Below are positions 792-64,000 of a DNA stretch of 64,000 nt, in pieces. A program made the position numbers and the translations under genes. Numbering within the stretch: position 1 is the first letter of the stretch; each line of letters starts with the position of its first letter. The notes beneath the pieces are model-generated. The model was not told the DNA's origin, did not search any database, and worked only from the letters and a program-made list of their open reading frames with translations. Origin of the DNA: a virus (lineage: Duplodnaviria; Caudoviricetes); the IMG/VR virus record IMGVR_UViG_3300046167_000798; one strand, written 5' to 3'.

Positions 792-3407
792 TTAGAATGT
801 ACCTCCATCAATTTCGTTACTTGCAACGAATGATGAACCATTCCATTGAATTACATCACCTGCCGTAGAAGGTGTAACTGATTCAAGAGATTTGTTTGAA
901 TCATAGTAAACGAATGAATTAGCAGTTGCTGAATTAACTCTTAATTCCGCAGTTCCACTTATTGTTACGTTTGTTCCATCATCAGTAATCAATGAATCAA
1001 CTAATAATCCACTAGCATTAGATTTAAGTACTGTGTTAGAAGTAGGAGTTGCATTTAATAAAGCAATTTCCTTTTCACCTCCAAGTGCACCAGCCATCCA
1101 ATGGTCTTCAGATGCATCCCATAGTAAAGAACCACTAACTGTAGCTCCACCAACAGCATCAGATACTAAGATACCTGCATCACCACTAGCTCCACCATAG
1201 TTAAGTTCTAAAACTCTATCACCGATATTAACAGTAGTTGAATCAATTGTTGTAGTTGTACCTTCAACAGTTAAATCACCAGTTACTCTTACATTACCAG
1301 TAAGTGTTGGGTTAGTTACGATACCAACTTGTATTTGATTATTAGTTACTGCAGTTTCGATTTCGTTTGCAGTACCAACAACCGCTAAGGTATCTACACC
1401 AACGTTTACTACATCAGTACTTGAACCATCACCAACTGTTAATCCTAATGAACCAGATGTTAAACCTGAACCATCAAAATCAATTTTTGAGTGATTAATT
1501 GCTGCTGAAGCATTAATGTGAGTATTTGTAATACCACCACTCTTAACACTTACTGTTCTAGCGGCAGAACCATTAAAGGTTGTTCCACTATTTAAAGCAA
1601 TTGTTGAATCATCAACTGTTAAGTTATTTAAGTTACCACCAAGAGTTACACCTGATATAGTTTTGTTTGAACCTAAAGCCGAACCATCAATTTGACCCGA
1701 ACCAGATACGATACCAGTTGCATCACTATTAATTTTAGAGAAAGCAATTGCCGCATTTGAAGCAATAGATGCATTTACAACCGCATTTGCAGCCAATTCA
1801 TCAGCTCCAACCGCATCATCAGCTAACATCGAGTTAACTACTTTTTGAGCTCCGATTGCAGAAACACCACTTGAATTTACAGTTACATCACCTGTCATGT
1901 CAGTTAATTGACCTGAACCTGATACTACTGAATCTCCATTTGTGTTTAAGAAATTACCAGATAATTGTGCAGAAGATGAAAATACACCTTCAGCATTTAA
2001 TTTAGTTTTTACACCACCAGTAAATGTTGAAGAAGCAGTTGCTAATTCAATATTATCTGCATTTGCAACAATACCATTGTTTGCAGATACTACATTTATT
2101 GTTCTAGTTGCCGCAATTGTACCACCACCAGTTAAACCAGTTCCAGCAGTTACACTTACTGAAGTATGGTCAATGTGGTCATTTGCATCGTAATCAGATA
2201 AACCACTTAAAGCGATTTGACCTGAAGCTGATACGATACCTTGTCCTTTAGCCAATAATATATCATATTCCGAACCAGATGCTCCAGCAATCCATTTATC
2301 ATTTGTAGCATCCCATAGTAAAGAACCTGATACTTGATTTGGAGCAGTTACATCTCCAATCATTAAACCACCATTTGCAGCTCCTGTACCATTAAGTTCA
2401 ATGATATTATCACCGATATTAACAGTTGTAGAAGATACACTTGTTGTAGTTCCTTGTACAGTAAAGTTACCTGTTACAGTTACATTACCACTAAGAGTTG
2501 GGTTAGTTACGATACCGATAGCAACTTGGTTATCAGTTACAGTTGTTTCAATTTCGTTTGCAGTACCTGCGAAAGTTAAAGTATCAACTCCAACTTGAGC
2601 AACATCAGTACCAGTTCCACCAGCAATTGATAAACCTAATGAACCAGATGTTAAACCTGAACCATCGAAATCAATTTTAGTATGGTCAAGTGCACCATTT
2701 GCAGTATTTGTATTTGAAACTACTACTTGAGATGAACCAGATACGATACCAGTTGCATCACTATTAATTTTTGAAAATGCAATTGCCGCATTTGAAGCAA
2801 CAGATGCATTTACTACTGCATTTGAAGCTAATTCATCAGCTCCAACTGCATCATCAGCTAACATTGAGTTAACTACTTTTTGTGCTCCTATCGCAGAAAC
2901 TCCTGAAGAGTTTACAGTTATATCACCTGTCATATCAGTTAACTGACCTGAACCAGATATTACACTATCTCCATTGATTTCTAAGAATGTTGAAGTTAAT
3001 TGTGCAGATGAAGAAATTACTCCATCTCCATTGTTCTTCAAAAATCCTAAACCATCGATTTGAGCAGAAGATGAAACAATTCCTGTTCCATTTGTACTTG
3101 CCGTTGCTTTTACTTCAGTATTTCCACCTTTACCTAAAATGTAAAGTTTTTCTTCTGAAGTATTATAAAACGGAATACCATCAATTGAGTGTCCATAAGA
3201 ACCCCCAGTTAAATTAGGTGTTGATGAACCTGATAATATCTTGTTTGATGGGGTTACGGTAGAACCATCGATTCCTACCATTAAGATTCCATCATTTACT
3301 GCAGATATTCCGGAAGAACCAGTAATAACGAGTAATTCACCCGCTCTTTTAGTTGCACCAGATACGGATTCAAGGCCACCACGTCTGTGTTTAATAATTT
3401 GTGCCAT
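792..3407 (-). CDS. Virion fibre/structural protein with Mtd_N-like N-terminus and internal duplications (871 aa)
   Basis: N-term MAQIIKHRRG; beta-rich GNxTVxGTTT...VNIGD modules; C-term EIDGGTF; Gly/Ser-rich; AAGGA upstream. Confidence 0.7.
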   Translation of the reverse strand: MAQIIKHRRGGLESVSGATKRAGELLVITGSSGISAVNDGILMVGIDGSTVTPSNKILSGSSTPNLTGGSYGHSIDGIPFYNTSEEKLYILGKGGNTEVKATASTNGTGIVSSSAQIDGLGFLKNNGDGVISSSAQLTSTFLEINGDSVISGSGQLTDMTGDITVNSSGVSAIGAQKVVNSMLADDAVGADELASNAVVNASVASNAAIAFSKINSDATGIVSGSSQVVVSNTNTANGALDHTKIDFDGSGLTSGSLGLSIAGGTGTDVAQVGVDTLTFAGTANEIETTVTDNQVAIGIVTNPTLSGNVTVTGNFTVQGTTTSVSSTTVNIGDNIIELNGTGAANGGLMIGDVTAPNQVSGSLLWDATNDKWIAGASGSEYDILLAKGQGIVSASGQIALSGLSDYDANDHIDHTSVSVTAGTGLTGGGTIAATRTINVVSANNGIVANADNIELATASSTFTGGVKTKLNAEGVFSSSAQLSGNFLNTNGDSVVSGSGQLTDMTGDVTVNSSGVSAIGAQKVVNSMLADDAVGADELAANAVVNASIASNAAIAFSKINSDATGIVSGSGQIDGSALGSNKTISGVTLGGNLNNLTVDDSTIALNSGTTFNGSAARTVSVKSGGITNTHINASAAINHSKIDFDGSGLTSGSLGLTVGDGSSTDVVNVGVDTLAVVGTANEIETAVTNNQIQVGIVTNPTLTGNVRVTGDLTVEGTTTTIDSTTVNIGDRVLELNYGGASGDAGILVSDAVGGATVSGSLLWDASEDHWMAGALGGEKEIALLNATPTSNTVLKSNASGLLVDSLITDDGTNVTISGTAELRVNSATANSFVYYDSNKSLESVTPSTAGDVIQWNGSSFVASNEIDGGTF
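1091..2975 (-). repeat. Two internally duplicated modules (A about 80 aa, offset 1035 nt; B about 130 aa, offset 1191 nt)
   Basis: A: GDSVxSGSGQLTDMTGD...INSDATGIVSGS at ~2734-2975 and ~1699-1940. B: KIDFDGSGLTSGSLGL...SGSLLWDA at ~2284-2678 and ~1091-1487. Confidence 0.9.
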
Positions 3408-3534
3408 TTTAATTTTTTTCCTTTGTTTTGTTAATTAAATTTGTTTTGTTAACTATAACCTTTATTTTTTTTAAATCAACAGGACATATGCCGTATTGGT
3501 CAATTAAATTCTGATTCCTATGTAGGAATACGAT

Positions 3535-3542
3535 TATAAATA
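3535..3542 (-). promoter_or_regulatory. Putative late promoter TATTTATA followed by a ~127 nt leader
   Basis: Intergenic octamer; hairpin ATTCCTA/TAGGAAT (3514-3529) starts 5 nt downstream. Confidence 0.55.
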
Positions 3543-3573
3543 TGAAAAGTTAGAAGAAAAGTTTTAGATTCTG

Positions 3574-4167: not shown

Positions 4168-4201
4168 TAGTTATTCTCCTTTTTATTTGTTAAACTCATT
4201 A

Positions 4202-4209
4202 TATAAATA
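4202..4209 (-). promoter_or_regulatory. Putative late promoter TATTTATA
   Basis: Intergenic, 34 nt upstream of ATG 4167. Confidence 0.6.
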
Positions 4210-4222
4210 TACATTTTCATCA

Positions 4223-11389: not shown

Positions 11390-11390
11390 T

Positions 11391-14273: not shown

Positions 14274-14307
14274 ATTATTTTCTCCTTAACTTATACAATT
14301 ATACTAT

Positions 14308-14315
14308 TATAAATA
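14308..14315 (-). promoter_or_regulatory. Putative late promoter TATTTATA
   Basis: Intergenic, 34 nt upstream of ATG 14273 and downstream of the capsid terminator. Confidence 0.6.
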
Positions 14316-14344
14316 TAAAATATTTGAAAAGGAAGTGTATAAAC

Positions 14345-14375
14345 AAAAAAAGAGGGAACATTTCTGTTCCCTCTT
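14345..14375 (-). terminator. Rho-independent terminator after major capsid gene
   Basis: 11-bp stem AAGAGGGAACA/TGTTCCCTCTT, GAAA tetraloop, T-run on minus strand. Confidence 0.9.
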
Positions 14376-14426
14376 AATTCTATCATCACTATTGTAATGA
14401 CTTACTACTAAAATTTAATTAACCGA

Positions 14427-16011: not shown

Positions 16012-16041
16012 TTTTATTTTTCCTTTTTTTTTGGGTTAAAA

Positions 16042-17226
16042 TTAGTTAATATTAGCAAGTTTCTTGAATCTATCAGCCATCGTATTAGTTGATTCAGCTA
16101 TTACTTCTTTCGAAGGAGCAGTTGATGCAACTGGTTTAGATGCGAATGATTCAGTAATTTTCTTACTAACTTTTTGTTTTTTTGAAGTTCCATTAATCTT
16201 AAACGATTCAGCTAAAGTGCTAAATACAAGTTTAACTTCTCTTACATTACCTGTTCTGTCTAATGTCTCAACAACTTTCATTTTTTGGTCATTGTTTAAG
16301 TCATATGAACGGAATAATTTGTTTGTATAAAGTAATTTTGCATTAAGCAAGTTTACTTCATTGATTGTAGTTTTAAGTTCCTTGATTGTACTCATTGCTT
16401 CTTTTAATTCAGCTTGAGCTTCTTCAAGTTCATTAGTTTCTTCTACAACTTCTTCAGAAACTTCTTCATCTGATTCTTCTTCTTCTCCGTATCCCATTTC
16501 TTTTAGGATTTCGTCTAAGTCGATTTCTTCATCATCAGATTCTTCTGATACTTCTTCTTCTTCAGAGTGGTCTTCATCACCTTCTTCAGAAATTTCTTCT
16601 TCTTCAGATTCTTCACCTTCATTGTGGTGTTCATCTTCGTGAGATTCGATTTCATCAGATGCGATATCAGCAACTTCTTCCTCTTCTTCATCATCAAGTT
16701 CTTCTTCAAGTTCTTTAATGATAGCTTCAAGGTCAAGTTCATCTTCTTCTTCTTCTTCTGCTACTTCTTCTTTAGATTCTTCAGAGTGAGTTTCATCAAC
16801 TTCCTCATCAGATTCTTCTTCTTCAGCAACAACTTCAGATTCTTCAGATACTTCTTCTTCAGATACTTTTTCTTCTTCAGCTTCTTCAGCAACAACTTCA
16901 GTTTCTTCAGATACTTCTTCTGTTTCTTCAGATACAGTTTCAGTTGATTCTTCAACTTCTTCTTTATCTTCTTCTTCAGTTACAGTTTCTTCGGATACTT
17001 CTTCTGTAGCTTCTTCAACTGTTTCAGTTTCTTCTACTACTTCGTTTTCTTCAATTTCTTCTGAATCTTCACCTTCTTCAATTTCTTGTTGAAGTTTCTG
17101 AGATAGAATAGATTGTAAACGAGGTGTAAAAGCTTCCTCAAGAGCTATCTTAGCATTTGCAATTGCAGTTTCTCTAACGGCTTTTGCATCAGCGATAGCT
17201 TCTTTTAACAAATTTGAGTTTGCCAT
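16042..17226 (-). CDS. gp22: Prohead core scaffold protein, gp22-like, extremely Glu-rich
   Basis: Acidic low-complexity middle, coiled-coil C-half, between protease and capsid genes; ends with RFKKLANIN. Confidence 0.8.
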   Translation of the reverse strand: MANSNLLKEAIADAKAVRETAIANAKIALEEAFTPRLQSILSQKLQQEIEEGEDSEEIEENEVVEETETVEEATEEVSEETVTEEEDKEEVEESTETVSEETEEVSEETEVVAEEAEEEKVSEEEVSEESEVVAEEEESDEEVDETHSEESKEEVAEEEEEDELDLEAIIKELEEELDDEEEEEVADIASDEIESHEDEHHNEGEESEEEEISEEGDEDHSEEEEVSEESDDEEIDLDEILKEMGYGEEEESDEEVSEEVVEETNELEEAQAELKEAMSTIKELKTTINEVNLLNAKLLYTNKLFRSYDLNNDQKMKVVETLDRTGNVREVKLVFSTLAESFKINGTSKKQKVSKKITESFASKPVASTAPSKEVIAESTNTMADRFKKLANIN

Positions 17227-17405: not shown

Positions 17406-17711
17406 TTATTTTCTTGTATTTTTATTTTTATCTTCTTTTTTTTGATTCTTTGGTTTTTTCTTCTTTTTAGTGTAAAACCTTATTGAAGTATCACCATCAT
17501 CTATCTTACCAAGTATGGTTTCCTTCTGTTGTTCTCTAATAGCTTGTTGTTTTTGTTTTCTACGAACTGTTGTGGGTTTTGTGTAGTATCGTCTTTCTCT
17601 CAGTTCTAAAAGATGTCCTGAATCAATTGTTCTTCTTTTTAATTTTTTTAATGCTCTGTTAATATCTCCTTTGATAACTTTAACAGAAACGATTGCATTT
17701 TTTTTACTCAT
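17406..17711 (-). CDS. rpsU: Ribosomal protein bS21 homolog with basic C-terminal extension (101 aa)
   Basis: VxV..GDINRALKKLKR...G.L.ELRERRYYTKPT..RR...QAIR is the bS21 signature; ~40 extra residues ending in a Lys-rich tail. Confidence 0.88.
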   Translation of the reverse strand: MSKKNAIVSVKVIKGDINRALKKLKRRTIDSGHLLELRERRYYTKPTTVRRKQKQQAIREQQKETILGKIDDGDTSIRFYTKKKKKPKNQKKEDKNKNTRK

Positions 17712-17741
17712 TCTCCTTAATTTATGTGTAACGTTATTTTA

Positions 17742-17749
17742 TATAAGTA
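17742..17749 (-). promoter_or_regulatory. Putative late promoter TACTTATA for bS21
   Basis: Intergenic, 30 nt upstream of ATG 17711. Confidence 0.5.
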
Positions 17750-17764
17750 TATACGTTTGAAGTT

Positions 17765-20478: not shown

Positions 20479-20488
20479 TGTACTCTCC

Positions 20489-21652
20489 TTAAAATAATTT
20501 TTTTAATTTTTTATCACCATAAACATCGGCGAAATACCATTTCTTATCTTTCATATTGTATAAATATATGTATTCTGCTCCACCACTTCTATCTGCAGTA
20601 TCTACATATTTACTAAAATCTTTCATATCACCTTTAGTTGGTTTCCCATTTTTGTAATATTCAATTTCTTTATCATCAAAGATTCCTCTTGCTCCACCCA
20701 TCTTGATTAGTTTAAGAACATCTTTATCACTTTTCATGTGATGTTTTAAACCTGGTTTCATATTTGATGGATATCCATCGTAGTGAACGTATGCAGAAAC
20801 AATCTTACCATTTCTACCAATTACACCAACTTGAGAACGAGTTCCTTCATTGATTATTGATTCTGGTAATAAATCTCTTAGATTTGTAGAGGTATTCTCT
20901 AAACTCATTTTCTTATCAAATAAATCTTTTAAATCTGCCCTTACATCAGCACTTCTAACAAAATCTGAACCAGAATCTTCAATATCATCTACAAACATTT
21001 TTGCAGTTTCTAAATCTCTTCCTTTAAGATATGGGAATATATCTGATTCTGCATAATCTCTCATTTCATCGCCATCTAAATCACCAATATTATTTTGAAC
21101 ATCATCTATCTGTGCATCAGAGTATTCATCTCTTACAGGTTCATCTTTCTTAGGTTCTTCTCCTTTAGGTTCTTCTTTTGGAGAATCTAAAGTCATTTTC
21201 TTATCAAATAAATCTTTTAAATCTTTTCTTAAATCAGCACTTCTATCAAAATCATCCCCTGCCGCATCAATATCATCTACATACATTTTTGCAAGTTCCA
21301 AATCTCTTCCTTTAAGATATGGGAATATATCTGATTCTGCATAATCTTGTATTTCATCACCAGGCATATCATCAATATTATTTTGAACATCTTCTATCTG
21401 TGCATCGGTTTGGTCATCCCTTACAGGTTCATCTTTCTTAGGTTCATCTTTCTTAGGTTTATCAAAGATGTTTACTTTAGGAGTATCTTTTTTATCATCA
21501 CCATCTTCTGAATCTTTTATTTTAGAATGAGTTCCAGCCTTTACAGCAGCATCTCTTGCATCTTTTGTTTTGAATACAGCAGTTTCTCCACTCTTTTTAG
21601 ATGTAGCAGTAAACGTTTCTTCTTCTTTTAATAAATCAGTTAATTTAATCAT
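20489..21652 (-). CDS. Modular putative internal head protein with 96-aa duplication and C-terminal GTRS...HYDGYP domain
   Basis: Starts MIKLTDLLKEEE; AAGGAG upstream; IINE-GTRSQVG...YVHYDGYP module. Confidence 0.55.
   Translation of the reverse strand: MIKLTDLLKEEETFTATSKKSGETAVFKTKDARDAAVKAGTHSKIKDSEDGDDKKDTPKVNIFDKPKKDEPKKDEPVRDDQTDAQIEDVQNNIDDMPGDEIQDYAESDIFPYLKGRDLELAKMYVDDIDAAGDDFDRSADLRKDLKDLFDKKMTLDSPKEEPKGEEPKKDEPVRDEYSDAQIDDVQNNIGDLDGDEMRDYAESDIFPYLKGRDLETAKMFVDDIEDSGSDFVRSADVRADLKDLFDKKMSLENTSTNLRDLLPESIINEGTRSQVGVIGRNGKIVSAYVHYDGYPSNMKPGLKHHMKSDKDVLKLIKMGGARGIFDDKEIEYYKNGKPTKGDMKDFSKYVDTADRSGGAEYIYLYNMKDKKWYFADVYGDKKLKKLF
20906..21470 (-). repeat. 288-nt (96 aa) tandem duplication
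   Basis: cattttcttatcaaataaatc at 20906 and 21194; YAESDIFPYLKGRDLE...DLKDLFDKKM twice. Confidence 0.92.
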
Positions 21653-21837
21653 AATTTCTTTGTCTCCTTTTTGAGTGTATATAAATCAAGTTTACCATCT
21701 TCTGTTAACTTAACATCATAATTTGTTTTTCTTATATCATTGTGACCGCCTTTAAATGGAACACTTGCAACGTTTCTTGTTACTGTTCCTAATTTAATTT
21801 TATTATCACCTAAGTATTTTTTTATATCAAATGCCAT
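21649..21837 (-). CDS. Small hypothetical protein (62 aa)
   Basis: Co-oriented, fills the gap between protease and next gene with a 4-nt overlap. Confidence 0.6.
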   Translation of the reverse strand: MAFDIKKYLGDNKIKLGTVTRNVASVPFKGGHNDIRKTNYDVKLTEDGKLDLYTLKKETKKL

Positions 21838-21840: not shown

Positions 21841-22434
21841 TTAGTTTAATTCTGTTATAATTTCTCTCATCAAATCTTGTGATTTACACCACTCGTTACA
21901 AACTTCACCTTGTTTAATAAGTTGTTTGTTAACAGATTCATTCATCGGAGTCATAAATGCTCCATGTGTTGATGGATTAGAAACAAAATCCCAACCAATC
22001 AATTCAAAATCTTCACCTACTTGTACTTTACCACCAGATAGAGGTTCTACTGAACCCATACCTCTTGATGATATACCTAAAAGGATTCCTGCTTTAAGTA
22101 GTTCTTTTAAGATGTTACCAGATGGGGTCGGTAAAATCTCAACTGTTCCTACTAAATCATCATTATCCCAATGTATCTCTCTTACGTTATGAGATACGTT
22201 CTTTAGATTGATTACAGAAGAATCTGGATGGTCTAATTCACCAAGTGCTCTTCTTTCTTTAATAAGTGTTTCGTATTTTTTTGCTTCTCTCATCAAAATT
22301 TCTTTAGGATATATCCTTCCATTTTGATTTTCAGCACCTGCTCTTTGTAAAATACCCTTAACGATAGTTCTTCCACTCTCGTCCTCGTTTACTCTACCTT
22401 CGAATAGGTTTGTTTCTATTAATAAATTTGCCAT
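21841..22434 (-). CDS. gp21: Prohead protease, T4 gp21-like
   Basis: NQNGRIYP, ALGELDHP, GISSRGMGS, DFVSNPST motifs; likely start MANLLIE at 22434 (TAATG overlap, GGGGAG). Confidence 0.93.
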   Translation of the reverse strand: MANLLIETNLFEGRVNEDESGRTIVKGILQRAGAENQNGRIYPKEILMREAKKYETLIKERRALGELDHPDSSVINLKNVSHNVREIHWDNDDLVGTVEILPTPSGNILKELLKAGILLGISSRGMGSVEPLSGGKVQVGEDFELIGWDFVSNPSTHGAFMTPMNESVNKQLIKQGEVCNEWCKSQDLMREIITELN

Positions 22435-22622
22435 TATGCTCCCCAACTTTTACGTTTTTTAAACAAATCAAAAAAGATTGCCGATACCTCTTGTCTGATG
22501 ATTTTTCTAATTTCATCTCTATCAGACTCATTGAGTTCCTCAGTAACTAAAAAATGGTTTACACCAAATTTAGCATTTGAGATTTCCTCATTGATGATAT
22601 CGAACAATTCACTTTTCTTCAT
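22434..22622 (-). CDS. Small head-module protein (62 aa)
   Basis: MKKSELFDIINEEI leader; coupled to the protease start. Confidence 0.55.
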   Translation of the reverse strand: MKKSELFDIINEEISNAKFGVNHFLVTEELNESDRDEIRKIIRQEVSAIFFDLFKKRKSWGA

Positions 22623-23058: not shown

Positions 23059-24101
23059 TTTTCTATCTCCTGTATAGTTCGAGCGATATTTATCAATCTC
23101 TCCTTTATCTTATAAATATGTTTATTTGTTCTTTTCCAATACTGATTGGAATCTAACTCATTCATTGTTTTAATTTTATTATACCAATTAAAAAACTTTT
23201 GAGTTTCTGCTAACTGATATTTTAATTCCTTTAAACCCATTGCCATCTTTTTATGAGGATGCATTGTTTCATCGTTTTTTAATTCTAACCAACGATTAAC
23301 TGGTCTCTTTACTTTAGCTTCGTTTATCGATTCTTTTAATCGATTCATTTTTTTATCAGTTACGAAATATGCAGAACCACCACCTGGAATTCCTTTTTCC
23401 ATATCTTGTAATCTCTTTACTTCTTTTTCAGCATCTTTAAATGTTCTGAATTCTTTTGGTGGTAATTTTTTATCTCTTTTTAAATCATATCCACCAACTA
23501 AAGATTTACCTCTTCCTCTACCTTTATTACGAGTAATATAGTATTTTGCTTCGTTTACTGATTCGTTAACTTTCTTTACGTGCTGAACAATCTTCTTAGC
23601 AAATGCAGGAGAAGTGATTTTAGCTATCTGAATAATAGTTTCTCTTCCATTAGGTCTGATACTCTTTACACTACCTCCACCTTTCATATCAGGAAACTTA
23701 CCATCCATTGAGTACCCATAATCTTTTATTGCAATAAGGTTACTACCTTTATCAAACATAAATTTGTAAGAACTTATTCTTGAACTATAAGAAATTCGTA
23801 TAGTTACTTCAAATTCACCTTCTTTATTTTTTTTATCAGAACCGATAACCATTCCGAATGATTCACCAGTTTTGTTGTTTCTACCTTTGATAGAAGCTTC
23901 ATCCATTTTACCAACTATTTTCATACCAAATTGAGTTGAAATCTTTTTCTTACGTTTTTTATCTTTAGCACCACCATCAGAAAATGCACCAGGTACATTA
24001 TACCCAGCTACATTGCCTGTTGCAGTTGCCTCATCCAATTCTTTTTCAACTTCTTGGATAAGTTCTTCTAAAAATTTATTAAGATTTTGTTCTATTGACA
24101 T
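23055..24101 (-). CDS. Modular putative internal head protein (348 aa)
   Basis: LDEATATG shared with the capsid protein; linkers MDEA, NESVNEA, KESINEA; AAGGAG SD. Confidence 0.55.
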   Translation of the reverse strand: MSIEQNLNKFLEELIQEVEKELDEATATGNVAGYNVPGAFSDGGAKDKKRKKKISTQFGMKIVGKMDEASIKGRNNKTGESFGMVIGSDKKNKEGEFEVTIRISYSSRISSYKFMFDKGSNLIAIKDYGYSMDGKFPDMKGGGSVKSIRPNGRETIIQIAKITSPAFAKKIVQHVKKVNESVNEAKYYITRNKGRGRGKSLVGGYDLKRDKKLPPKEFRTFKDAEKEVKRLQDMEKGIPGGGSAYFVTDKKMNRLKESINEAKVKRPVNRWLELKNDETMHPHKKMAMGLKELKYQLAETQKFFNWYNKIKTMNELDSNQYWKRTNKHIYKIKERLINIARTIQEIEK

Positions 24102-24951
24102 TTTTTATCTCCTTAACCAATTCATAAGACATCATTAAAGCCGAAACTTGGTCATCGGTAACTTTTTTACCAATTTTCTGTTTTTTCAAAACATTAATAG
24201 TTTCTTTCAACTTTATTTTTGTAATCTTATCTTTCATACTCTTATACATTGAATGTAATTCAGTAATAGTTTTGATTAATTCTGATTCAAAATATTCGTT
24301 GAACTTGGATGTGTTAGTAACATTATTAATATACTCTCTTAACAATCCTTTTTGTGATTTATCTAAAGTAGTATATTTTTTATTAAAAGTTTCAACAAGA
24401 ATCTTGTATGTCAATAACCTGAGGTCTTTCTCTTGTTTTCTATATTCTTCTACTAATTTATCTTGTTTAAGAACTTTAGAATCTTGGGAAATAGATGAAA
24501 TGTGCTCTACAATAGTAATTTTCGAATCGAATATATCCTTGACATCAAGAATATCATTCTTTTTACCTTCAAAAAGTTTATGAATTGAAGCTAAAATTTT
24601 ATAGTTTGTTACCGGGGAAGATAAAAAATTATTAATTTCAAAATTTTCTTTGATTGATTTTACAAGATTATATTTTTCTCGTTGAAGTTTTTTATAATTA
24701 ATTCTAGTATGTGCTTCTAATATAGCATCAATAAATTTTTCTGCTTTAGATTCACTATTATACTTTTCATTTATTAAAAGGTTAAATAATCTAAGTTCCT
24801 TAGACATTTCAGTACCTTTACCGTAGAATTCTCTGATTATTTCTTTTGACTTTTCTTCACTACCATTTAGTATTTCAACAGTAATCTGCCTTGTTAAAAG
24901 TTCAAAAAGGAAACCAGTATTCTTAAATTTTGAATGTTTTATTTTTTTCAT
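24079..24951 (-). CDS. Conserved helical head-module protein next to portal (290 aa)
   Basis: Long ORF KHSKFKNTGFLFELL...; own TATTTATA and AGGA; function not recognised. Confidence 0.6.
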   Translation of the reverse strand: MKKIKHSKFKNTGFLFELLTRQITVEILNGSEEKSKEIIREFYGKGTEMSKELRLFNLLINEKYNSESKAEKFIDAILEAHTRINYKKLQREKYNLVKSIKENFEINNFLSSPVTNYKILASIHKLFEGKKNDILDVKDIFDSKITIVEHISSISQDSKVLKQDKLVEEYRKQEKDLRLLTYKILVETFNKKYTTLDKSQKGLLREYINNVTNTSKFNEYFESELIKTITELHSMYKSMKDKITKIKLKETINVLKKQKIGKKVTDDQVSALMMSYELVKEIKNVNRTKS

Positions 24952-25027: not shown

Positions 25028-26752
25028 CTACTCTTCAAGTATATTATCTTCATCTAACATACCTTTAATCTCATTTAAATATTTACGTTTTGATGCTATA
25101 CCTGATATCATTTTTATTGCTTTTTCTTCAGAAGTTCTTGAACGTTTTTTGTTTTTTTCCTTCTTTCCCAAAGGGTCTCTACCTAATGGATGTTTATCTT
25201 TCCCATAAGTACCACCTTCACGAGGCCTTCCACCCTTATTTTTTATTTCTTGTTTCAATGCTTCTATTGATTCTTCAATATCATCAGGTTCTTCATCTTC
25301 CATTGCAGGGTCATTACCCTCATCTTCAATAGAACGGAATCTAAATCTATCTTTTAAATCATCTAACATCATTACTCTTTGTTCATCAGATTCTCCTTCA
25401 GATAATTTAAATATATTTTCATATACCCAATCTTTAGATAACATATTTAATCCTTGAATATCTTGAGCCAATCTAATTTTTTCACTCCACAAGTTTACTT
25501 TCTCTTGTTCATAAATTGTAGATGGATTTACTAATTGTAATTCAAAGTTAGTCATTTCTGAATCTGTTATCCCTTGTGCATATAAATGAACAATGGCAAT
25601 TTTAGATAATTCTGAAATTACTGTTCTTTGGATTCTTTCAATTGTTCTTGCAAATCTTACATCTTCAGCAGCAAGTGTTGCTTTACCATTTACATTTTCT
25701 TCATATCCTAAATAAGCTCTTGGAATTTTTAATGCTGCAAATAATTTATTTTTTAAGTAATCAATATCTTCAATAGTTGCATACTCTAATCCTGAAAGAT
25801 TATCGATTTGTGTACCACTATCACCACCACGAACAGGAAGATAGAAATCTTCTGTTAGGTTTTGCATATTATACTTTAAGTTGTAATCACCAGTATTTCT
25901 ATCGATGAAAGGAACTTTCTTCATCTTGTTGATGATTCTCTGCATATAGTTATCCACTTCTGTTGGTGGGATGTTACCAATATCAATTTTGAAAACTCTT
26001 TTTTCAGGTGCTCTCATGATTCTATGGATTAACATAGCATCTTCCATTAGAGATAATTGTTTCCACAATCTTCGTCCATTCTCAATCATAGATTTACCAT
26101 ATGGTAACCAGTTAGTATCTGCTAACAACCTAAAGTGAGCGATTTCAAAGTTTTCGTATTCTTCTTTTCCATTCGGGTCTTCAGTAATTTTAAACTTTAC
26201 TGAATTTGGATTTGATGGGTCTGTTCTTTCTAATCTTTCTGTATTATAAACTGAATGAGGAGTAACATTTACGATACCTTTTCCTTCTGCAACTTCTAAA
26301 CCTAAAAAGAAATCTCCATACTTACACATATTTCTAGTCCATGGCCATAAGTTGAATTCTATATTAAGAACATCATAAAATAAGTTTACTAATATATCTT
26401 GAACTCGTTCATTATCAGAATGAATCATAAGAGTATCACCAAATTCGTTCTTTAGTGTTGATTCATCTGCATATATATCAAGAGCCGATGCAAGTATTGG
26501 GTCGTTATCCATCGCATCGTAATCTCTAAAAACTTCTCTACGAACTTGTTGGTATGCCATTGATTGAGCACCACCTGCTTGTTCAAAGAAACTTTTTTGT
26601 AGTTTCGTATATCTATCTCTTAGAGAAGATAAATTTGTTTGTTGTCTTTCATCGGTATCAACAACTTTTCTCTTACCATCTTTGTCAACAGTAACAACTG
26701 CTTGAGCTCTGAAGAGTTTCGTTAATCTACCAAAAAATGAAGTATCTGCCAT
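25028..26752 (-). CDS. gp20: Portal vertex protein, T4 gp20-like
   Basis: QLSLMEDAMLIHRIMRAPEKRVFKIDIGN, EDFYLPVRGG...L.G, IEDIDY...LF.AL.IP motifs. Confidence 0.95.
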   Translation of the reverse strand: MADTSFFGRLTKLFRAQAVVTVDKDGKRKVVDTDERQQTNLSSLRDRYTKLQKSFFEQAGGAQSMAYQQVRREVFRDYDAMDNDPILASALDIYADESTLKNEFGDTLMIHSDNERVQDILVNLFYDVLNIEFNLWPWTRNMCKYGDFFLGLEVAEGKGIVNVTPHSVYNTERLERTDPSNPNSVKFKITEDPNGKEEYENFEIAHFRLLADTNWLPYGKSMIENGRRLWKQLSLMEDAMLIHRIMRAPEKRVFKIDIGNIPPTEVDNYMQRIINKMKKVPFIDRNTGDYNLKYNMQNLTEDFYLPVRGGDSGTQIDNLSGLEYATIEDIDYLKNKLFAALKIPRAYLGYEENVNGKATLAAEDVRFARTIERIQRTVISELSKIAIVHLYAQGITDSEMTNFELQLVNPSTIYEQEKVNLWSEKIRLAQDIQGLNMLSKDWVYENIFKLSEGESDEQRVMMLDDLKDRFRFRSIEDEGNDPAMEDEEPDDIEESIEALKQEIKNKGGRPREGGTYGKDKHPLGRDPLGKKEKNKKRSRTSEEKAIKMISGIASKRKYLNEIKGMLDEDNILEE

Positions 26753-27183: not shown

Positions 27184-27201
27184 AGTTATTTCTCCTTATA
27201 T

Positions 27202-27209
27202 TATAAATA
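27202..27209 (-). promoter_or_regulatory. Putative late promoter TATTTATA
   Basis: Intergenic, 18 nt upstream of ATG 27183. Confidence 0.55.
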
Positions 27210-27214
27210 TACAA

Positions 27215-28807
27215 TTATTTAATTAACCAAGTTAGGTCTTCATTACTATCTCCAACTCTCATTTTCCAAGGGTCATCTTCCATTGAAGAGTTACCTCCAA
27301 ATCCCATTCCACTAATATCTAAAGAGTGTGCTCCAATACCACCTAATGCTTGTTTTGTTAAATCAATTCCTTCTTGTCTTAATCTTAATGCAGTATCTCT
27401 AACCCATAATCCGATTGATAATGACATTGTTAAATCATCATTATAACCTCTCATAGCTTCAGCTCTGTTTCCACTCCATATAAATGTAAATAATTCATCT
27501 ATTGTTCTTTGTGAACGAATCGTTACTGATTTTTCTCTAATATATTGTTCCAACTTTGATATAATCAAAGGTCGTGTTTTGGAAGTTGTACTAAATCCTG
27601 CCGTTAATCCTCTATCTTGTGCTCTATATTTGTTTGTTAATTGATTTTCTACATCTACATACTTTAAATCCTTACTCATGTAGAAAAGATTCCCATATCC
27701 TCTATCAATTACTTGTTGTATTACTGCCCAACCAATATTTGCGTTCTCAATAACAAGTAATGCATTATTATATTCAGTTGAAAGTGATACAAGGAAGTTT
27801 CCAAAATCTTTTGTATCTAATTTACCTTTATATTCGGCAACTTGAGATGATTCTTCTATATCAATAACATGACATGCAGAATAATCCGAGGAATCTCCAC
27901 GAGCAACATCCGCTACAACCATATAAGCTTTATTATAGTTTGGATATTCCCATTTCCAAAGGTTTCCATCGAATCCTGTTTTCTCCATTGGTTCTTGTAC
28001 ATAAGATTCTTTATAAAACAAAAGGAGTTGTGGGTCTATCACAGTATCACCAGAAGAAACAAAATCACAATCACATTCTTGTGCCGCTCCTTTTGGTCCT
28101 AATAGTACCTCTTGTTCATCTCTCCAATTTTGGTCTCTTTCAGGATGAACACTCCAATGTAATCTAATTGAGTTAAATGTATTTGTTTGTTCTTCAGAAC
28201 CAACCCAAGTTTTGTGAAAGAAATTTCCGACACCATTTGGTGTTGAAAGGATAATCGCATTACCACCAGTCGATAGTGTTGATTGTGCTGATACCCAAAT
28301 ATCTTCAATCTTATCAATAAATGCCGCCTCATCAAATACTAATAGGGATAGTGCTTCAGAACGACCAGCATCTCCAGCGGCTGATGTTGCTTTTATCTGA
28401 GAACCATTCGAGTATCTCAGAGATAACTTATTATCCTCTACTGTTGTTTGTTTTAACCACGATGGTAAGTACTGATTCATTACACGAACCTTCGTTACAA
28501 GGTTCTTAGCAACCTCTTGTTTAGTTGCAATTACTAATACATTAAAATCTTGATTGAATAACATTTTCCAAAGTGAAAATCCCGCAGTTAAGGTAGAGAT
28601 ACCTGTTTGTCGAGATTTAAGGATAATATTGTATCTGTGTTCTGCAAATTGGTCTAATGTTCTTTCTTGAAATTGATATAAATGAAAAGGTATCTTACCA
28701 CGCACAGGATGTTGAATCATACAATATTTTTTCATAAAGTAGATTGGGTCTCCAGCACATTTCTGATACTCAAGTTTTATAATATCTTTTAAAGATTGTT
28801 TAGCCAT
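27215..28807 (-). CDS. terL: Terminase large subunit, T4 gp17-like
   Basis: Walker A KSRQTGIST, Walker B LLVFDEAAF, STPNG, nuclease ADVARG..DYS and DDLTMS. Confidence 0.96.
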   Translation of the reverse strand: MAKQSLKDIIKLEYQKCAGDPIYFMKKYCMIQHPVRGKIPFHLYQFQERTLDQFAEHRYNIILKSRQTGISTLTAGFSLWKMLFNQDFNVLVIATKQEVAKNLVTKVRVMNQYLPSWLKQTTVEDNKLSLRYSNGSQIKATSAAGDAGRSEALSLLVFDEAAFIDKIEDIWVSAQSTLSTGGNAIILSTPNGVGNFFHKTWVGSEEQTNTFNSIRLHWSVHPERDQNWRDEQEVLLGPKGAAQECDCDFVSSGDTVIDPQLLLFYKESYVQEPMEKTGFDGNLWKWEYPNYNKAYMVVADVARGDSSDYSACHVIDIEESSQVAEYKGKLDTKDFGNFLVSLSTEYNNALLVIENANIGWAVIQQVIDRGYGNLFYMSKDLKYVDVENQLTNKYRAQDRGLTAGFSTTSKTRPLIISKLEQYIREKSVTIRSQRTIDELFTFIWSGNRAEAMRGYNDDLTMSLSIGLWVRDTALRLRQEGIDLTKQALGGIGAHSLDISGMGFGGNSSMEDDPWKMRVGDSNEDLTWLIK

Positions 28808-29498: not shown

Positions 29499-30143
29499 AA
29501 TTTTTTTCCTTTAACTTATCAAAAAGCTTCTTCTCTTTTGACTTCTAATTCTTTAATTTCGTTTTCCGCCGTAATCAATAAGTTCTTGTATCTCAGCTTT
29601 AACCTCATCAATAGATTTTGGTAACTTCCATTTTTCTGTTACCTTTCCATCTGAACCTATCATTTCATATTCTTCTTTAAGTTCATCTATTGATTGTTTA
29701 TATGATTCTAATTTTGTTTTACCATATACAATCATCTTTGTCCATACCTTATAATTTTGATATTCTAACCACAAACCAGCAGTTCGTATCTCATGTTCTT
29801 TATTAACAGTACATTCCATACAAAATCCACCACTTTGAATGAATTTTAAATCTTTATCTGTTTTCTTAATGGTTTTACACTCAGAATTCTTACAATTTGA
29901 CTTTTCTTGAAGATATTTTCTAATTTCTTGGAAAGCTTCCGAATTTTTACCTGTTTTTAGAACATATCCTTCTTTTTTCTCATATCTGTTATGCTTATCT
30001 TCCCAAACATCACCAACTTTACGAGATTCTTCTTTTTTTGTGTATCCAATGGTAGTATTTTTATCATACTCACCTGTTTCCACCATATCAACCAACTTTC
30101 TACGAGTTGGGTGCATATATTTCTTCTTGAATTCTTTACCCAT
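29482..30143 (-). CDS. Cys-containing conserved phage protein (~219 aa, two single-base insertions near the 3' end)
   Basis: CKNSEC...CMEC; removing one base at 29573-4 and at 29521-5 gives ...IDTAENEIKELEVKREEAFDKLKEKNYEHYI-stop. Confidence 0.55.
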
Positions 30144-30169
30144 TGTTATATATTAGGTTATAATTTATA

Positions 30170-30177
30170 TATAAATA
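30170..30177 (-). promoter_or_regulatory. Putative late promoter TATTTATA
   Basis: Intergenic, 26 nt upstream of ATG 30143. Confidence 0.55.
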
Positions 30178-35070: not shown

Positions 35071-35091
35071 ATTTGGTACACCTTATCAGTA

Positions 35092-35099
35092 TATAAATA
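35092..35099 (-). promoter_or_regulatory. Putative late promoter TATTTATA
   Basis: Intergenic, 21 nt upstream of ATG 35070. Confidence 0.55.
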
Positions 35100-36149
35100 T
35101 TAATTATATAAATTAAAGAAAGCATGTCCAGTTTTATCCAATTCTAAATCATGTGAATTGTTATTTAAAAACTCTAAATATTCTGGATTTGTAAATTTGT
35201 TTGTTTTAGCTATATTAAGTGCCGTTTGTCTGTTTCTTTCTAACTTGTTTGATATCAAATCATATAGTTTATTATAATCTTTATCTTTTAACCTATCTAA
35301 GTTTTCACAAATACCAATTATTCTTTCTGTTCTTGTTTCTTTTGAATCAAATGAATAATCAAATATTTCATCATACAACTCAAACCCAAATTCTTCTAAT
35401 GTTTTATGAAATCCCTTATATGAATATGTAATAAATGGCTGACCAACTAATAATGGTTTACAAGTTTTTTCAGATATACCTATTATTTCATCATCACTTT
35501 CGGTTACTAGATTTATCAAAGGATTTCCATAAGTTATATCGTGCCAATACCAAGACCATCCGTCTTGTTTAGAATCTGTGGTAAGTTTTTTATATTTGTT
35601 ATCAAAATACTTAAATTTATAATCATATACATCCCCATCCATTAACCAACTATAATTACCATAAGATAGTAAATCGTATTTAGATAAGGTATCCATCATT
35701 TCACATCTGAAATCATGTGGTTTATTATTTAAGTTTATAAATAAAGAACTTTTGGAATTGTTGGATATATTTTTAGATACATTATCAATATTGTAATTTT
35801 TGTTTTCATAATGTTTATAAACTAAAAAGTTTAAAAAGTAAAGTGGACTATCAAAAAACTTTATATTAGATAATTCTTTTCTATTGTACCAACTTGATTG
35901 TTTTTTGTAAAAAGAAAGTGCAAAAATTAAAGTTAAGTTATATCTTACTAATTTATTATTAATTTCTTCAAAATTTTCATGGCCAATTTCTCTTTCTTGC
36001 AAGTTTTCCATGTAAATATACTCACCCCCATCTAATATCACATTATGGATAAAAGAATTACTACAAGATGATTCATCATATTCTAGTATCATCTCTAGTA
36101 TTGTATCAGGAGAACCCTGCCCAATATACTGATGAACTGATTTACTCAT
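35100..36149 (-). CDS. GT10-like putative glycosyltransferase, paralog 1
   Basis: NLNNKPHDFR, NLVTES, SEKTCKP, QPF, GFELYDEIFDYSFD motif set. Confidence 0.5.
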   Translation of the reverse strand: MSKSVHQYIGQGSPDTILEMILEYDESSCSNSFIHNVILDGGEYIYMENLQEREIGHENFEEINNKLVRYNLTLIFALSFYKKQSSWYNRKELSNIKFFDSPLYFLNFLVYKHYENKNYNIDNVSKNISNNSKSSLFINLNNKPHDFRCEMMDTLSKYDLLSYGNYSWLMDGDVYDYKFKYFDNKYKKLTTDSKQDGWSWYWHDITYGNPLINLVTESDDEIIGISEKTCKPLLVGQPFITYSYKGFHKTLEEFGFELYDEIFDYSFDSKETRTERIIGICENLDRLKDKDYNKLYDLISNKLERNRQTALNIAKTNKFTNPEYLEFLNNNSHDLELDKTGHAFFNLYN

Positions 36150-43122: not shown

Positions 43123-43984
43123 CTATCCTTTTATATATTTTACAAATGATGAAAAAAGATTTTCTAACTGATTATTTTCAAATTTATAATCTTTCATTCC
43201 ATCACTTCTAAATTGTTTTTTATATTCTATCTCTAATATGTTTTCTCTATCTGTTAATCCAATGTGAGATAAATCTATAATAGATAGTTTGTTATTTAAA
43301 TATTCAAAAGTATTTATAAACTTATCTATATCTAACTTCGGGTCTCCATTTTCATTAACATATGCATCATAGTACTTAATTTCATTTGGTCTTATATGAT
43401 GTGATTGAAATCCTTTCCAATATTTTTCCTCAAACATAGATAATAAATATAAAATCATTCCTTTATGTGGACCTGATTCGTTAAAGAATTCTGTGTTTGG
43501 TAAATTATCTGCAAACTTTTTTATCATCTCATGGCTACCAAAAAAAAGCATGGTCTGGAATATGTTGTAAGGGCTCACCATTATTGCTTAATTGACCTAA
43601 TGGATATATCTGATTGGGTACATTATTTAGTAATTTTTCTAAATCTTTTATATAAAATGTACTATCAACTCTTCCTATGAAAATACAATCATATACATCA
43701 TCACACTCATTCAAGTACTTAGATAAAAACCTAAAAGAATAATGAAGAACATGATTATCTGTATTTGAAAAATCTTTCCTATCGTATAAAAAAACCTTTG
43801 GATTGTTTAATGTATTAAAGTCTTCTTCTGTAACAGATTCAAAGTTTGATGAACCTAAATATTCACTTGTTGTATTTGGAGTGTGAATTACAATATCTAA
43901 GTTTGGGATATCTAATATGTTCCAAAACTTTCTTGCAGTTTCAAAGGTTCTCTTTTCCCCATATAAAAAATATAAACATTTCAT
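43123..43984 (-). CDS. Hypothetical glycan-locus protein, possibly glycosyltransferase-like (~286 aa, one frameshift)
   Basis: Removing one base from the A8 run at 43540-43547 joins the two track ORFs (IPDHAFFGSHEMI); start MKCLY overlaps the upstream stop. Confidence 0.5.
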
Positions 43985-54567: not shown

Positions 54568-54575
54568 TATAAATA
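54568..54575 (-). promoter_or_regulatory. Putative promoter TATTTATA inside glycan locus
   Basis: In one of the few intergenic gaps of the locus, 20 nt upstream of ATG 54547. Confidence 0.45.
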
Positions 54576-54581
54576 TATAAT

Positions 54582-63034: not shown

Positions 63035-63050
63035 ATATTATTGTATAAAT

Positions 63051-63782
63051 TCAGTTGGTGTCTTTTCTAAAAAATATGTATTTTCCTGAATTATCGAAAA
63101 TTATATCTTTATTGTTCTTATCTAATGTATAATTAAATATTATATTTTTATATTCCGGTAACTTGTTTAAATCAGTTACTTCTGTATTTTTTATTTTTTT
63201 AATAGTTTCGATATCTATGATATCTTCTACAAAGAATAATGAATTTAAATGATACGAGCCATGATATCTATGTTCGGGTACTTGTGTACCTGGATTTCCA
63301 CTTCCTATCAATAACCCCTCTTCTCTATAATCATCTATTAGATTTTTATCAAAATCTTTATCACTATTTCTTTCCCAATTAAAATAACAAATGAATTCAT
63401 CATCATTTCTTACTATGGTTACATTATTATATTCCTTTAATTGCTCATAGTTTATATTATAAAAAGGAACATAATGAAATTCATCACCAGCTACTTTTGT
63501 AGTTGCTTCTGACCAGAATTCTAAAGCAAGTGCATCTGCTTCTGTATTATAGGTTAACCCAAAGTTCTTTCCTGGCTTACCAAAGATACAAAAAATTTTA
63601 TCACTTTCCAAATTTTTATCCAATTTAAATTCAATATTTATTGCATATTGTTTTTGATGGAATAAATTTTTTATTTTTTCTGATTCTATTTTATTAAATT
63701 CAGTTACATATTGGTCATCTTTATGGTCAGATAAATCCCACTCATATTTAACCCAATATGGTTCTTTATAGTTTATAATCAT
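63051..63782 (-). CDS. LamG/concanavalin-like jelly-roll protein
   Basis: Beta-strand pattern with LLIG.G...YHG and C-term DNSG; resemblance by eye. Confidence 0.4.
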   Translation of the reverse strand: MIINYKEPYWVKYEWDLSDHKDDQYVTEFNKIESEKIKNLFHQKQYAINIEFKLDKNLESDKIFCIFGKPGKNFGLTYNTEADALALEFWSEATTKVAGDEFHYVPFYNINYEQLKEYNNVTIVRNDDEFICYFNWERNSDKDFDKNLIDDYREEGLLIGSGNPGTQVPEHRYHGSYHLNSLFFVEDIIDIETIKKIKNTEVTDLNKLPEYKNIIFNYTLDKNNKDIIFDNSGKYIFFRKDTN

Positions 63783-64000
63783 TTTAATTCATTTATAAAT
63801 TTTCTTAATTCAGGAAATGTTTCATAACAATCCAAATCTCTTCTTTTTTTGTAATCACTAATATAGTGTTTAAATTTTTTCTTTCCTATATCAAATGTAA
63901 TATCTGATTTATTATCTTCTATGAACATATCCTTTATTCTTGATATCTTTTCAATTTCTTTTAATGAAAATCCAGTATCACCTATTTCTTGCATATCATA
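63779..64000 (-). CDS. C-terminal end of a second radical SAM paralog (partial)
   Basis: KRRDLDCYETFPEL matches DKRRGKDFCKTFPEL near the end of the 61567 enzyme. Confidence 0.55.
   Translation of the reverse strand, partial: YDMQEIGDTGFSLKEIEKISRIKDMFIEDNKSDITFDIGKKKFKHYISDYKKRRDLDCYETFPELRKFINELK

Follow-up and report, generated by a model that had tools for sequence, protein, structure and literature searches.

The window analysed here, a 64,000-nt stretch of a virus genome (IMG/VR record IMGVR_UViG_3300046167_000798; Duplodnaviria, Caudoviricetes), carries three blocks of genes on its minus strand. The first (792–29498) is a virion morphogenesis block that contains TerL (27215–28807), the portal (25028–26752), the prohead protease (21841–22434), the ribosomal protein bS21 (17406–17711), the scaffold (16042–17226), the major capsid protein (MCP, 16011–14427), a neck/adaptor gene (14273–13119), and large tail-side proteins. 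The second (29553–36149) holds non-virion genes, namely g30143, an RNA-ligase-like gene, and the NMNAT-HD-CCA gene (31963–35070). The third (36306–63782) is a glycan/sugar-nucleotide locus of about 28 ORFs, in which epimerases/dehydratases, radical SAM, DegT, UDP-glucose dehydrogenase, and RmlC confirmed the assignment. Gene starts were taken as the first ATG by an ORF caller of our own, and the assembly of the window carries indel errors, which create a few false starts (15146, 13850, 62931, probably 43990 and 43581). The adaptor gene is broken by such indels, and the apparent split of the MCP reflects one at 15246; both MCP halves matched phrog_138, and every covering contig of three runs lacks one base at this position.

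The bS21 gene encodes 101 aa and is a true S21 protein (Pfam PF01165, E = 1.9e-12, 47.1 bits against a cut-off of 27, profile positions 1–54 of 55), with hits to bS21 chains of many solved ribosomes. It lies within the head module, between the protease and the scaffold/MCP genes, and on the same strand as all its neighbours. In an alignment with a Tyr54-type bS21 (9i5v_9), Arg59 and Glu60 fall without gaps on Tyr54/Val55, that is, at the positions of Bacteroidia Tyr54 and Ile55, and Arg59 is invariant in seven clade members. A Lys-rich C-terminal extension of 42 aa with a net charge of +8 follows. The protein thus lacks the Tyr54/Ile55 contacts and the weakly basic C-terminus that define the anti-SD-sequestering Bacteroidia bS21.

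Shine-Dalgarno motifs in the virion and enzyme blocks

An earlier note on this sequence had listed Shine-Dalgarno (SD) motifs ahead of the morphogenesis genes and reported only one in the glycan locus, and this observation was confirmed, with every listed motif found in place. AAGGAG/AGGAG precede the starts at 4167, 14273, 20478, 21652, 23058, 24101, and 27183; GGAGG precedes 19527 and GGAG precedes 22434; AGGA/AAGGA precede 3407, 12551, 13114, 16011, 24951, 26752, 28807, and 29498; and AGGT precedes 17226, 18109, and 35070. Spacing from the 3' end of the core to the ATG has a median of 8 nt, and 19 of 22 sites lie within 4–11 nt.

To evaluate these motifs against background, hybridisation of positions -20 to -3 with ACCUCCUUU was scored with ViennaRNA duplexfold. 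The 27 first-ATG starts at or below 29498 gave a mean of -4.74 kcal/mol, and 17 of 27 were at or below -4, against a local null of 17.9% derived from 655 non-start ATGs on the same strand (binomial p = 2.6e-7); with three starts corrected, the count is 19 of 26. In contrast, the 28 glycan starts gave a mean of -0.69, with 2 of 28 at or below -4 against a null of 15.2%, and the two classes differed by Mann-Whitney test (p = 2e-6). The two glycan starts are a doubtful TTG start at 43990 and the start at 43120 of a PfkB-like kinase, where AAGGA (43126–43130) lies 5 nt upstream and constitutes the single convincing SD-like motif in this locus. Background composition therefore does not explain the contrast. 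Nor does gene overlap, which had been set beforehand as a possible confounder: the contrast between glycan and virion starts holds within translationally coupled genes (gap ≤ 4 nt, 2/23 versus 7/13, p = 1.3e-3) and within spaced genes (0/5 versus 10/14, p = 9e-4).

Several of the virion sites are conserved among clade contigs. AAGGAG at 27192–27197, 8 nt before the start at 27183 (a 129-aa head-module protein), is kept in 25 of 27 contigs although flanking bases vary, and AAGGAG at 24109–24114, 7 nt before 24101 and inside the coding sequence of the upstream gene, is kept in 27 of 29. The corresponding counts are 27 of 27 for AGGAG at 23067–23071 (8 nt before 23058), 24 of 25 for GGGGAG at 22439–22442 before the protease start at 22434, 12 of 12 for AAGGAG at 21664–21669 (11 nt before 21652), 11 of 11 for AAGGAG at 20485–20490 (6 nt before 20478), and 4 of 4 for AAGGA at 16021–16025, 9 nt before the MCP start at 16011. 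AAGGAG also occurs at 14282–14287, 8 nt before the adaptor start at 14273, where a late motif lies at 14308–14316 and a terminator hairpin at about 14350–14388, and at 4176–4181, 8 nt before 4167, with a late motif at 4202–4210. The bS21 gene itself is preceded by AAGGAG (17713–17718), extended to AAGGAGA, with a 1-nt spacer, which is poor for SD function, and by the late motif ATACTTATA at 17742–17750.

The late-type promoter motif ATAYTTATA is not restricted to SD-led genes. It precedes the SD-less g30143 (30170–30178), the NMNAT-HD-CCA start at 35070 (35092–35100), where only a weak AGGTG is present, and the SD-less glycan start at 54547 (54568–54576), the one late motif of this A/T-rich-leadered locus. 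g30143 was SD-less in 21 of 21 clade contigs. The split thus separates virion genes from enzyme genes and follows gene class, not timing.

Distribution among related phages

The comparison covered about 38 related contigs, and orthologous starts of six genes keep GGAG in 93–100% of contigs with at least 78% portal identity while neighbouring bases vary, which indicates purifying selection on the motif; contigs at 69–76% portal identity mostly lack it. The same split appears in four related genomes (G003, G007, G008, and the complete 276-kb G010), whose enzyme blocks total 6 of 127 starts at or below -4 against about 17% expected (p = 2.6e-5). In G010, 1 of 12 early-promoter genes has SD, against 22 of 39 late-motif genes. 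The AAGGAG abutting the bS21 start is also seen in G003 and G007 but is absent in two further relatives, L080 and G005.

Among 80 related bS21 loci, all SD-rich genomes encode a bS21 with Arg at the position of Tyr54 (Arg54) plus a long tail, while loci of the Tyr54 type (L274–276) and of the short-tail types (G005, L285–287) have SD fractions of 0.07–0.17. G005 is sister to the SD-positive L080, so loss of the tail and loss of SD coincide there. The link is not clean, however. G013 (a complete genome) and L239 carry Arg54 bS21 with a 29-aa tail but have no SD, so the variant is not sufficient; G005, with Arg54 and a short tail, has none either. Conversely, G006/L052 lack bS21, both in the syntenic place and anywhere in 70.6 kb including the head module (E ≤ 10), yet show moderate SD enrichment that includes the MCP gene (14/39, p = 0.011), so phage bS21 may not be necessary. 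SD-positive genomes form essentially one clade, and the association with bS21 type therefore rests on very few independent events and could reflect a shared host lineage instead. No phage bS18 or bS6 was found, so bS21 is the only platform protein supplied.

The host is probably Bacteroidota, judged from relatives only, and nothing in the window itself fixes the phylum; the promoter type TAnnTTTG is not enriched in the window, which holds no early region. In the relatives G010 and G013, the early promoter TTG-N-TTTCGTATATTT[GA], of the TAnnTTTG type, is enriched 26–34 fold in intergenic DNA, and signal peptides ending in [AGS]-Q (Q-rule, PMC5837995) are found in G010, G013, and the relative G004. 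The nearest cultured relatives are Flavobacterium phage vB_FspM_immuto (NC_055915) and Microcystis phage Mel-JY01 (PP395634), with TerL identities of 54% and 56% and portal identities of 48% and 52%, respectively, and a shared head-module order. Immuto infects Flavobacterium, has no bS21, and, like G004, is wholly SD-free. Mel-JY01 has bS21 at the same place and SD on every gene class, which fits an SD-competent host (Microcystis is the reported one) rather than a switch. Of the three, only the clade of the window shows a class-specific split.

Possible role of the phage bS21

The earlier note had proposed that the phage runs two translation regimes, with host-style initiation for glycan genes and an SD regime for virion genes switched on when phage bS21 frees the anti-SD. 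This interpretation is partly supported. Two kinds of translation initiation region do coexist and their difference is conserved by selection across a clade, whereas a temporal switch between expression classes is not supported, and a bS21-dependent switch is plausible but remains hypothetical.

Bacteroidota ribosomes keep the 16S anti-SD locked away on bS21/bS18/bS6. In Flavobacterium johnsoniae, Tyr54 of bS21 stacks on A1534 and Ile55 contacts the 3' tail, and the C-terminus of Bacteroidetes bS21 is unusually non-basic (Jha et al. 2021, PMC7797042); ribosomes with Y54A or deltaC bS21, or depleted of bS21, translate SD-led mRNA 3–5 fold better (McNutt et al. 2023, PMC9976891). Our preferred but tentative explanation is that the window belongs to a marine jumbo phage of about 276 kb, of a large clade related to immuto, whose bS21 would occupy the bS21 site on 30S subunits late in infection. 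With Arg/Glu in place of Tyr54/Ile55 and a long Lys-rich tail, this protein would not hold the 16S 3' tail, and such ribosomes could pair with the SD sites embedded in the A-rich leaders of virion genes. Abundant virion mRNAs would thereby receive an extra, phage-private boost, while early genes and enzyme genes (glycan synthesis, RNA repair) would still be translated in the SD-less, A-rich mode of the host. The motif statistics, their conservation, the sequence features of bS21, and the pattern among relatives were demonstrated by our analysis; the host phylum, incorporation of phage bS21 into ribosomes, release of the anti-SD, dependence of translation on SD pairing, and any effect on translation are inferences. 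In its strongest form, this view would have a bS21 variant converting SD-blind ribosomes of marine Bacteroidota into SD-reading ones, and a whole clade of abundant jumbo phages that has rewritten its virion leaders to use this private channel while leaving enzyme and early genes on the SD-less mode, a possibility that the evidence leaves less likely than not.

Alternatively, the SD sites could be functional without being enabled by phage bS21, a reading we consider less likely than not, and somewhat less likely than the preferred one. The host lineage might read SD natively, or infection itself could leave many 30S subunits without host bS21, which exchanges quickly and whose synthesis would stop on host shut-off; SD strength would then tune output by abundance class, and phage bS21 would have another job, such as keeping 30S functional. 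In agreement with this, G006/L052 have SD on the MCP, protease, and other late genes without bS21, the Arg54 carriers G013, L239, and G005 have no SD, Mel-JY01 uses SD on all classes, and bS21-free F. johnsoniae ribosomes are SD-competent (PMC9976891). However, the depletion of SD below chance in non-virion genes of the clade (6/127) is unexpected in a natively SD-using host, close relatives with the same promoters (G004, G013) are entirely SD-free, and all strongly SD-positive genomes found carry the Arg54-plus-tail bS21.

A purely historical origin, in which the glycan locus is a mobile island that keeps the leaders of SD-less donors (hosts or other phages) while core virion genes keep ancestral SD sites, is very unlikely. 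The locus is indeed a variable island of lower G+C (22–28% against 30–37%) that does not align with the closest complete relative beyond 35100 and aligns only partly with G003. Nevertheless, conserved core genes outside it are also SD-less (g30143, the RNA-repair genes, and the early genes of G010), the different enzyme islands of four relatives are all SD-less, and the best cellular relatives of the Gmd gene are only 65–71% identical and lie mostly in SD-using phyla. In addition, more distant relatives lack SD on virion genes, so SD is derived in this clade, not ancestral. Equally improbable is that the purine-rich motif is a late-transcript signal (a promoter-proximal element, an RNA processing or stability site, or the binding site of a phage regulator) or a by-product of coding sequence: many sites do lie 10–25 nt downstream of the late motif, near predicted 5' ends, and the spacing at bS21 is poor, but the motif is complementary to the 16S 3' end at canonical distance, occurs at coupled starts inside upstream genes far from any promoter motif (24101, 21652, 12551, 11063), and is missing from some late-motif genes.

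In the bS21-encoding freshwater myovirus clades of Bacteroidetes (Chen et al. 2022, ISME Commun, PMC9723584), large phages likewise place bS21 among the TerL, portal, protease, and MCP genes and express it late, and the authors propose that it replaces host bS21 and selects phage mRNAs. There, bS21 is on the reverse strand and always keeps an aromatic residue (Tyr/His/Phe) at position 54, read as mimicking the host's anti-SD block, and no SD analysis of phage genes is reported in that paper; here it is co-directional, with an invariant Arg54 and a Lys-rich tail. In F. johnsoniae, SD recognition is gated by whether bS21 (Tyr54 and the C-terminal region) holds the 16S 3' tail, and the bS21 gene itself sits behind an SD (PMC9976891; Naeem et al. 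2026, PMC13000453; PMC7797042). In that host, one gene (rpsU) uses the gate, whereas here some 20 virion genes per 30 kb carry SD, and the proposed trigger is a variant bS21 rather than its absence. Among the bS21 paralogs of Francisella tularensis that bias translation of particular mRNAs (PMC9578407), swapping one variant for another also changes which leaders are translated well, but in a cellular system without an SD-blind background. The bS21 of the marine Pelagibacter phage HTVC008M can enter ribosomes, as shown in E. coli (Mizuno et al. 2019, cited in PMC9976891), but its host belongs to a different phylum and no class-specific SD pattern has been described.

Phage-encoded bS21 is the commonest ribosomal protein gene in viruses, and this clade links the long-open question of its function, now directly testable, with that of why Bacteroidia keep an anti-SD they hide. 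It provides a natural bS21 variant without the sequestering residues and about 20 conserved SD-led virion genes next to SD-less enzyme genes in the same late transcripts. The comparison set supplies ready-made controls in SD-rich genomes with Arg54-plus-tail bS21, SD-free genomes with Tyr54, tail-less, or no bS21, and the awkward exceptions G013 and G006. The phage is widespread in seawater and is present in metatranscriptomes, and any effect would therefore matter for how abundant marine Flavobacteria are taken over.

Gene content of the window and distribution of SD motifs

All real genes of the window lie on the minus strand. From high to low coordinates, they comprise a sugar-nucleotide/glycan locus (63782-36306) with SDR epimerases/dehydratases, Gmd, RmlC, UDP-glucose dehydrogenase, a DegT aminotransferase, two radical SAM enzymes, a PfkB kinase and TPP enzyme halves; a few non-virion genes (36149-29553), including an NMNAT-HD-CCA nucleotidyltransferase; and a head-to-tail morphogenesis block. 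The latter contains TerL (28807-27215), portal (26752-25028), prohead protease (22434-21841), bS21 (17711-17406), an acidic scaffold (17226-16042), MCP (16011-14427), a neck/adaptor gene (14273-13119), and large unannotated proteins down to 792. The bS21 gene encodes a bona fide Ribosomal_S21 protein (PF01165, E = 1.9e-12). Megablast of 15 kb of the window against phage records found no match, and neither did tblastn of bS21 against phage records, the latter probably because the protein is short and low in complexity.

Comparison with public sequencing runs disclosed indel errors in the assembly. Every contig from three runs that covers position 15246, inside MCP, lacks one base there, and the same holds at 14174 and 30819 for the runs covering those places. 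Further single-base indels relative to every covering contig lie near 62935 and 31967. Together they split MCP, the neck gene, an RNA-ligase-like gene and a radical SAM gene into pieces, a pattern that looks like long-read assembly error and not programmed frameshifting. A few ORF starts are therefore artefacts (15146, 13850, 62931, and probably 43990 and 43581).

The SD-like motifs listed in the earlier note were all recovered at their positions, and the contrast it described between morphogenesis and glycan genes is confirmed. To evaluate this contrast, we scored the pairing of positions -20..-3 with ACCUCCUUU. The 27 first-ATG starts at or below 29498 averaged -4.74 kcal/mol, with 17 at or below -4, while only 17.9% of 655 non-start ATGs on the same strand of that region reached -4 (p = 2.6e-7). 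The 28 glycan starts averaged -0.69, and two were at or below -4 against a local null of 15.2%; the difference between the classes has p = 2e-6. With three obviously mis-called starts replaced (14273, 22434, 19527), the virion count is 19 of 26. The note had named control for operon position and gene overlap as a test of its reading, and the contrast held both among coupled genes (p = 1.3e-3) and among spaced genes (p = 9e-4), so these factors do not explain it. Spacing is canonical, with a median of 8 nt and 19 of 22 motifs within 4-11 nt. Guanine peaks at -13 to -7 in virion leaders and is nearly absent there in glycan leaders, whereas A at -3 is frequent in both sets.

A late-type promoter-like motif, ATAYTTATA, occurs 17 times in the window against 7.3 expected, a count that no shuffle reached, and 16 of the 17 copies are on the coding (minus) strand between 655 and 54576 (e.g., 4202-4210, 14308-14316, 27202-27210, and 54568-54576). 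Most copies lie 18-40 nt upstream of gene starts, which implies very short leaders. The motif precedes SD-led starts (4167, 14273, 17711, 24951, 27183), but also SD-less starts (30143, and 54547 inside the glycan locus) and the weak 35070. SD-less and SD-led genes thus share late-type promoters, and the split separates virion genes from enzyme genes rather than early from late genes. The interpretation in the earlier note, a host-style regime for glycan genes and an SD regime for virion genes switched on when phage bS21 frees the anti-SD, is only partly supported.

Conservation of the split among related phages

A search with the portal found about 600 related IMG/VR contigs, of which the best 80 were kept. 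In the contigs with at least 78% portal identity, orthologous starts keep the SD while neighboring bases vary: 93% for g27183 and 93% for g24101 (genes are named by their start coordinate in the window), 100% for g23058, 96% for the protease, 100% for g21652, 100% for g20478, and 100% for MCP. In the 69-76% group, the same starts mostly lack SD. The 196-aa gene g30143 (29553-30143), which lies behind a late motif, has a leader (AACCTAATATATAACA) that is SD-free in 21 of 21 clade contigs, making it a conserved exception inside the packaging region. A nested pair of IMG/VR contigs, L014 and L022 (portal 90-92% identical), has lost the intergenic SDs of TerL, g27183, portal and g24101 (for example AAGGAG to AAAGAG or GAACAA) but keeps those that lie inside upstream coding sequence; both contigs are too short to show their bS21.

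Longer relatives repeat the split, with SD-rich head/virion genes in each case. In the enzyme block, SD-led starts number 0 of 30 in G008 (49 kb, 93% portal identity), 1 of 16 in G007 (41 kb, 81%), 1 of 20 in G003 (123 kb, 91%), and 2 of 29 in G010, a complete 276-kb genome to which window positions 369-35100 align at 68-91% nt identity. Pooled with the window, 6 of 127 enzyme-block starts reach -4, against about 17% expected (p = 2.6e-5). Early genes were read in G010, since the window is only part of its genome; there, genes behind early promoters have SD in 1 of 12 cases and genes behind the late motif in 22 of 39, with a null of 17.6%. The window's glycan locus does not align with G010, the closest complete relative, beyond 35100 and aligns only in pieces to G003 (35100-64000 compared). 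It is therefore a hypervariable enzyme island between the conserved tail-fibre and head modules, yet the island of each relative is SD-less.

Host inference and phage bS21

The window alone does not identify the host, and TAnnTTTG, the -7 element of Bacteroidota promoters, occurs there 100 times against 104 expected, which is uninformative. Inference was therefore based on relatives. The nearest cultured phages are Flavobacterium phage immuto and Microcystis phage Mel-JY01. The much closer uncultured relatives G010, G013 (also complete) and G004 share an early promoter, TTG-N-TTTCGTATATTT[G/A], which is enriched 26-34 fold in intergenic DNA and is of the Bacteroidota -33/-7 (TAnnTTTG) type (PMC6847099, PMC9723704). 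In G010 and G013, it has an invariant TTTCG immediately upstream of the -7 box (TTTCGTATATTT[GA]) and is present in 21-22 copies per genome; a strict pattern search undercounted it in G010, whose boxes end in A rather than G, and the discovered motif was used instead. These relatives also encode secreted proteins whose signal peptides end in [AGS]-Q, the Bacteroidetes Q-rule (PMC5837995). In G010, a cluster of late genes (220255-234500) encodes lipoproteins and secreted proteins with such signal peptides, some SD-led and some not. Both immuto and G004 are entirely SD-free, even below chance.

As a host marker, the T9SS C-terminal domain (PF18962) was found only in immuto and not in G003, G004, G005 (a further relative) or Mel-JY01, and a donor search with Gmd in 185,579 genomes gave best hits of 65-71% identity spread over many phyla, so that it carries no host signal. 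Taken from relatives only, a Bacteroidota host is likely. The phage is marine, is found in 17 studies, and occurs in metatranscriptomes.

In F. johnsoniae, Tyr54 of bS21 stacks on A1534, Ile55 contacts the 3' tail, and the C-terminal part is unusually non-basic (PMC7797042), while Y54A, C-terminal deletion or depletion raises translation of SD-led messages 3-5 fold (PMC9976891). The window's protein aligns without gaps to a Tyr54-type bS21, with Arg59/Glu60 at those positions, and the Arg is invariant in seven clade members. A C-terminal extension of 30-49 aa follows, with a conserved ILxKIxDG[DN]T motif and then a Lys run (net charge +5 to +11). In the window, this extension corresponds to bS21 residues 60-101 (17406-17531; columns 60-108 of alignment A1), and it is absent from the cellular bS21 chains among the PDB hits and from the SD-free G005 lineage. 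Searches for bS18 and bS6 homologues in five complete relatives found none.

To relate bS21 type to SD use, we compared 80 bS21 loci plus whole genomes. The strongly SD-positive genomes, many contigs that form essentially one MCP clade, carry Arg54 plus a long tail and have SD fractions of 0.35-0.84. SD-free lineages are L274-276 with Tyr54 (AIYIQ), G005 with Arg54 and a 13-aa tail, L285-287 with Arg54 and a 15-aa tail, the complete G013 and L239 with Arg54 and a 29-aa tail, and G004 and immuto with no bS21. The short tail of G005 is genuine, as the gene ends with a real terminator, and G005 is sister to the SD-positive L080. In contrast, G006/L052 lack bS21 but are moderately enriched in SD (14/39, p = 0.011), including on MCP; the search for bS21 in G006 covered its 70.6 kb, including the head module, at E <= 10. 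Mel-JY01 has a bS21 with Lys54 and SD on all gene classes.

On the portal tree, the bS21-bearing genomes fall outside a clade of bS21-less ones (support 82/88). The variant bS21 is thus associated with SD use, but it is neither clearly sufficient nor clearly necessary, and the number of independent evolutionary events is too small for a test. The correlation of bS21 tail length with SD index over 76 loci gave a Spearman rho of 0.19 (p = 0.09) for fraction and -0.39 (p = 6e-4) for mean energy; since it is not corrected for relatedness and is contradicted by two tail-bearing SD-free lineages, we do not rely on it.

Possible origin of SD competence, and the MCP region

The SD sites are real, selected and class-specific, and they occur in phages whose closest kin and own regulatory signals point to SD-blind hosts. 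Whereas the motif statistics, their conservation, the sequence features of bS21 and the pattern among relatives come directly from our analysis, the host phylum, any SD competence of ribosomes in infected cells and any part played in it by phage bS21 are inferred. The most economical mechanism is that ribosomes in infected cells become SD-competent, and the Arg54, tailed bS21 of the phage is the obvious, though tentative, candidate for causing this. In a close rival view, doubtful but only slightly less favored, SD competence would arise without it, through the host lineage or through bS21-free 30S after host shut-off. The readings that the split is mere history of a mobile island, or that the motif is not an SD, fit the data poorly. 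In the literature searched, we found no paper reporting SD sites on virion genes of bS21 phages, and Chen et al. 2022 describe only phage bS21 with an aromatic residue at position 54.

A G+C-rich hairpin followed by a T run (14350-14388, minus strand) lies directly after the MCP stop and is followed by a late motif and the SD-led neck gene, which looks like a strong terminator isolating the MCP transcript. Contig depth in RNA runs is much higher over MCP/scaffold than over other head genes; however, contig depth cannot rank genes, and this was not used as evidence. The scaffold gene (16042-17226) is extremely acidic and repetitive, and RNA and DNA contigs show many length variants and rearranged joints there.
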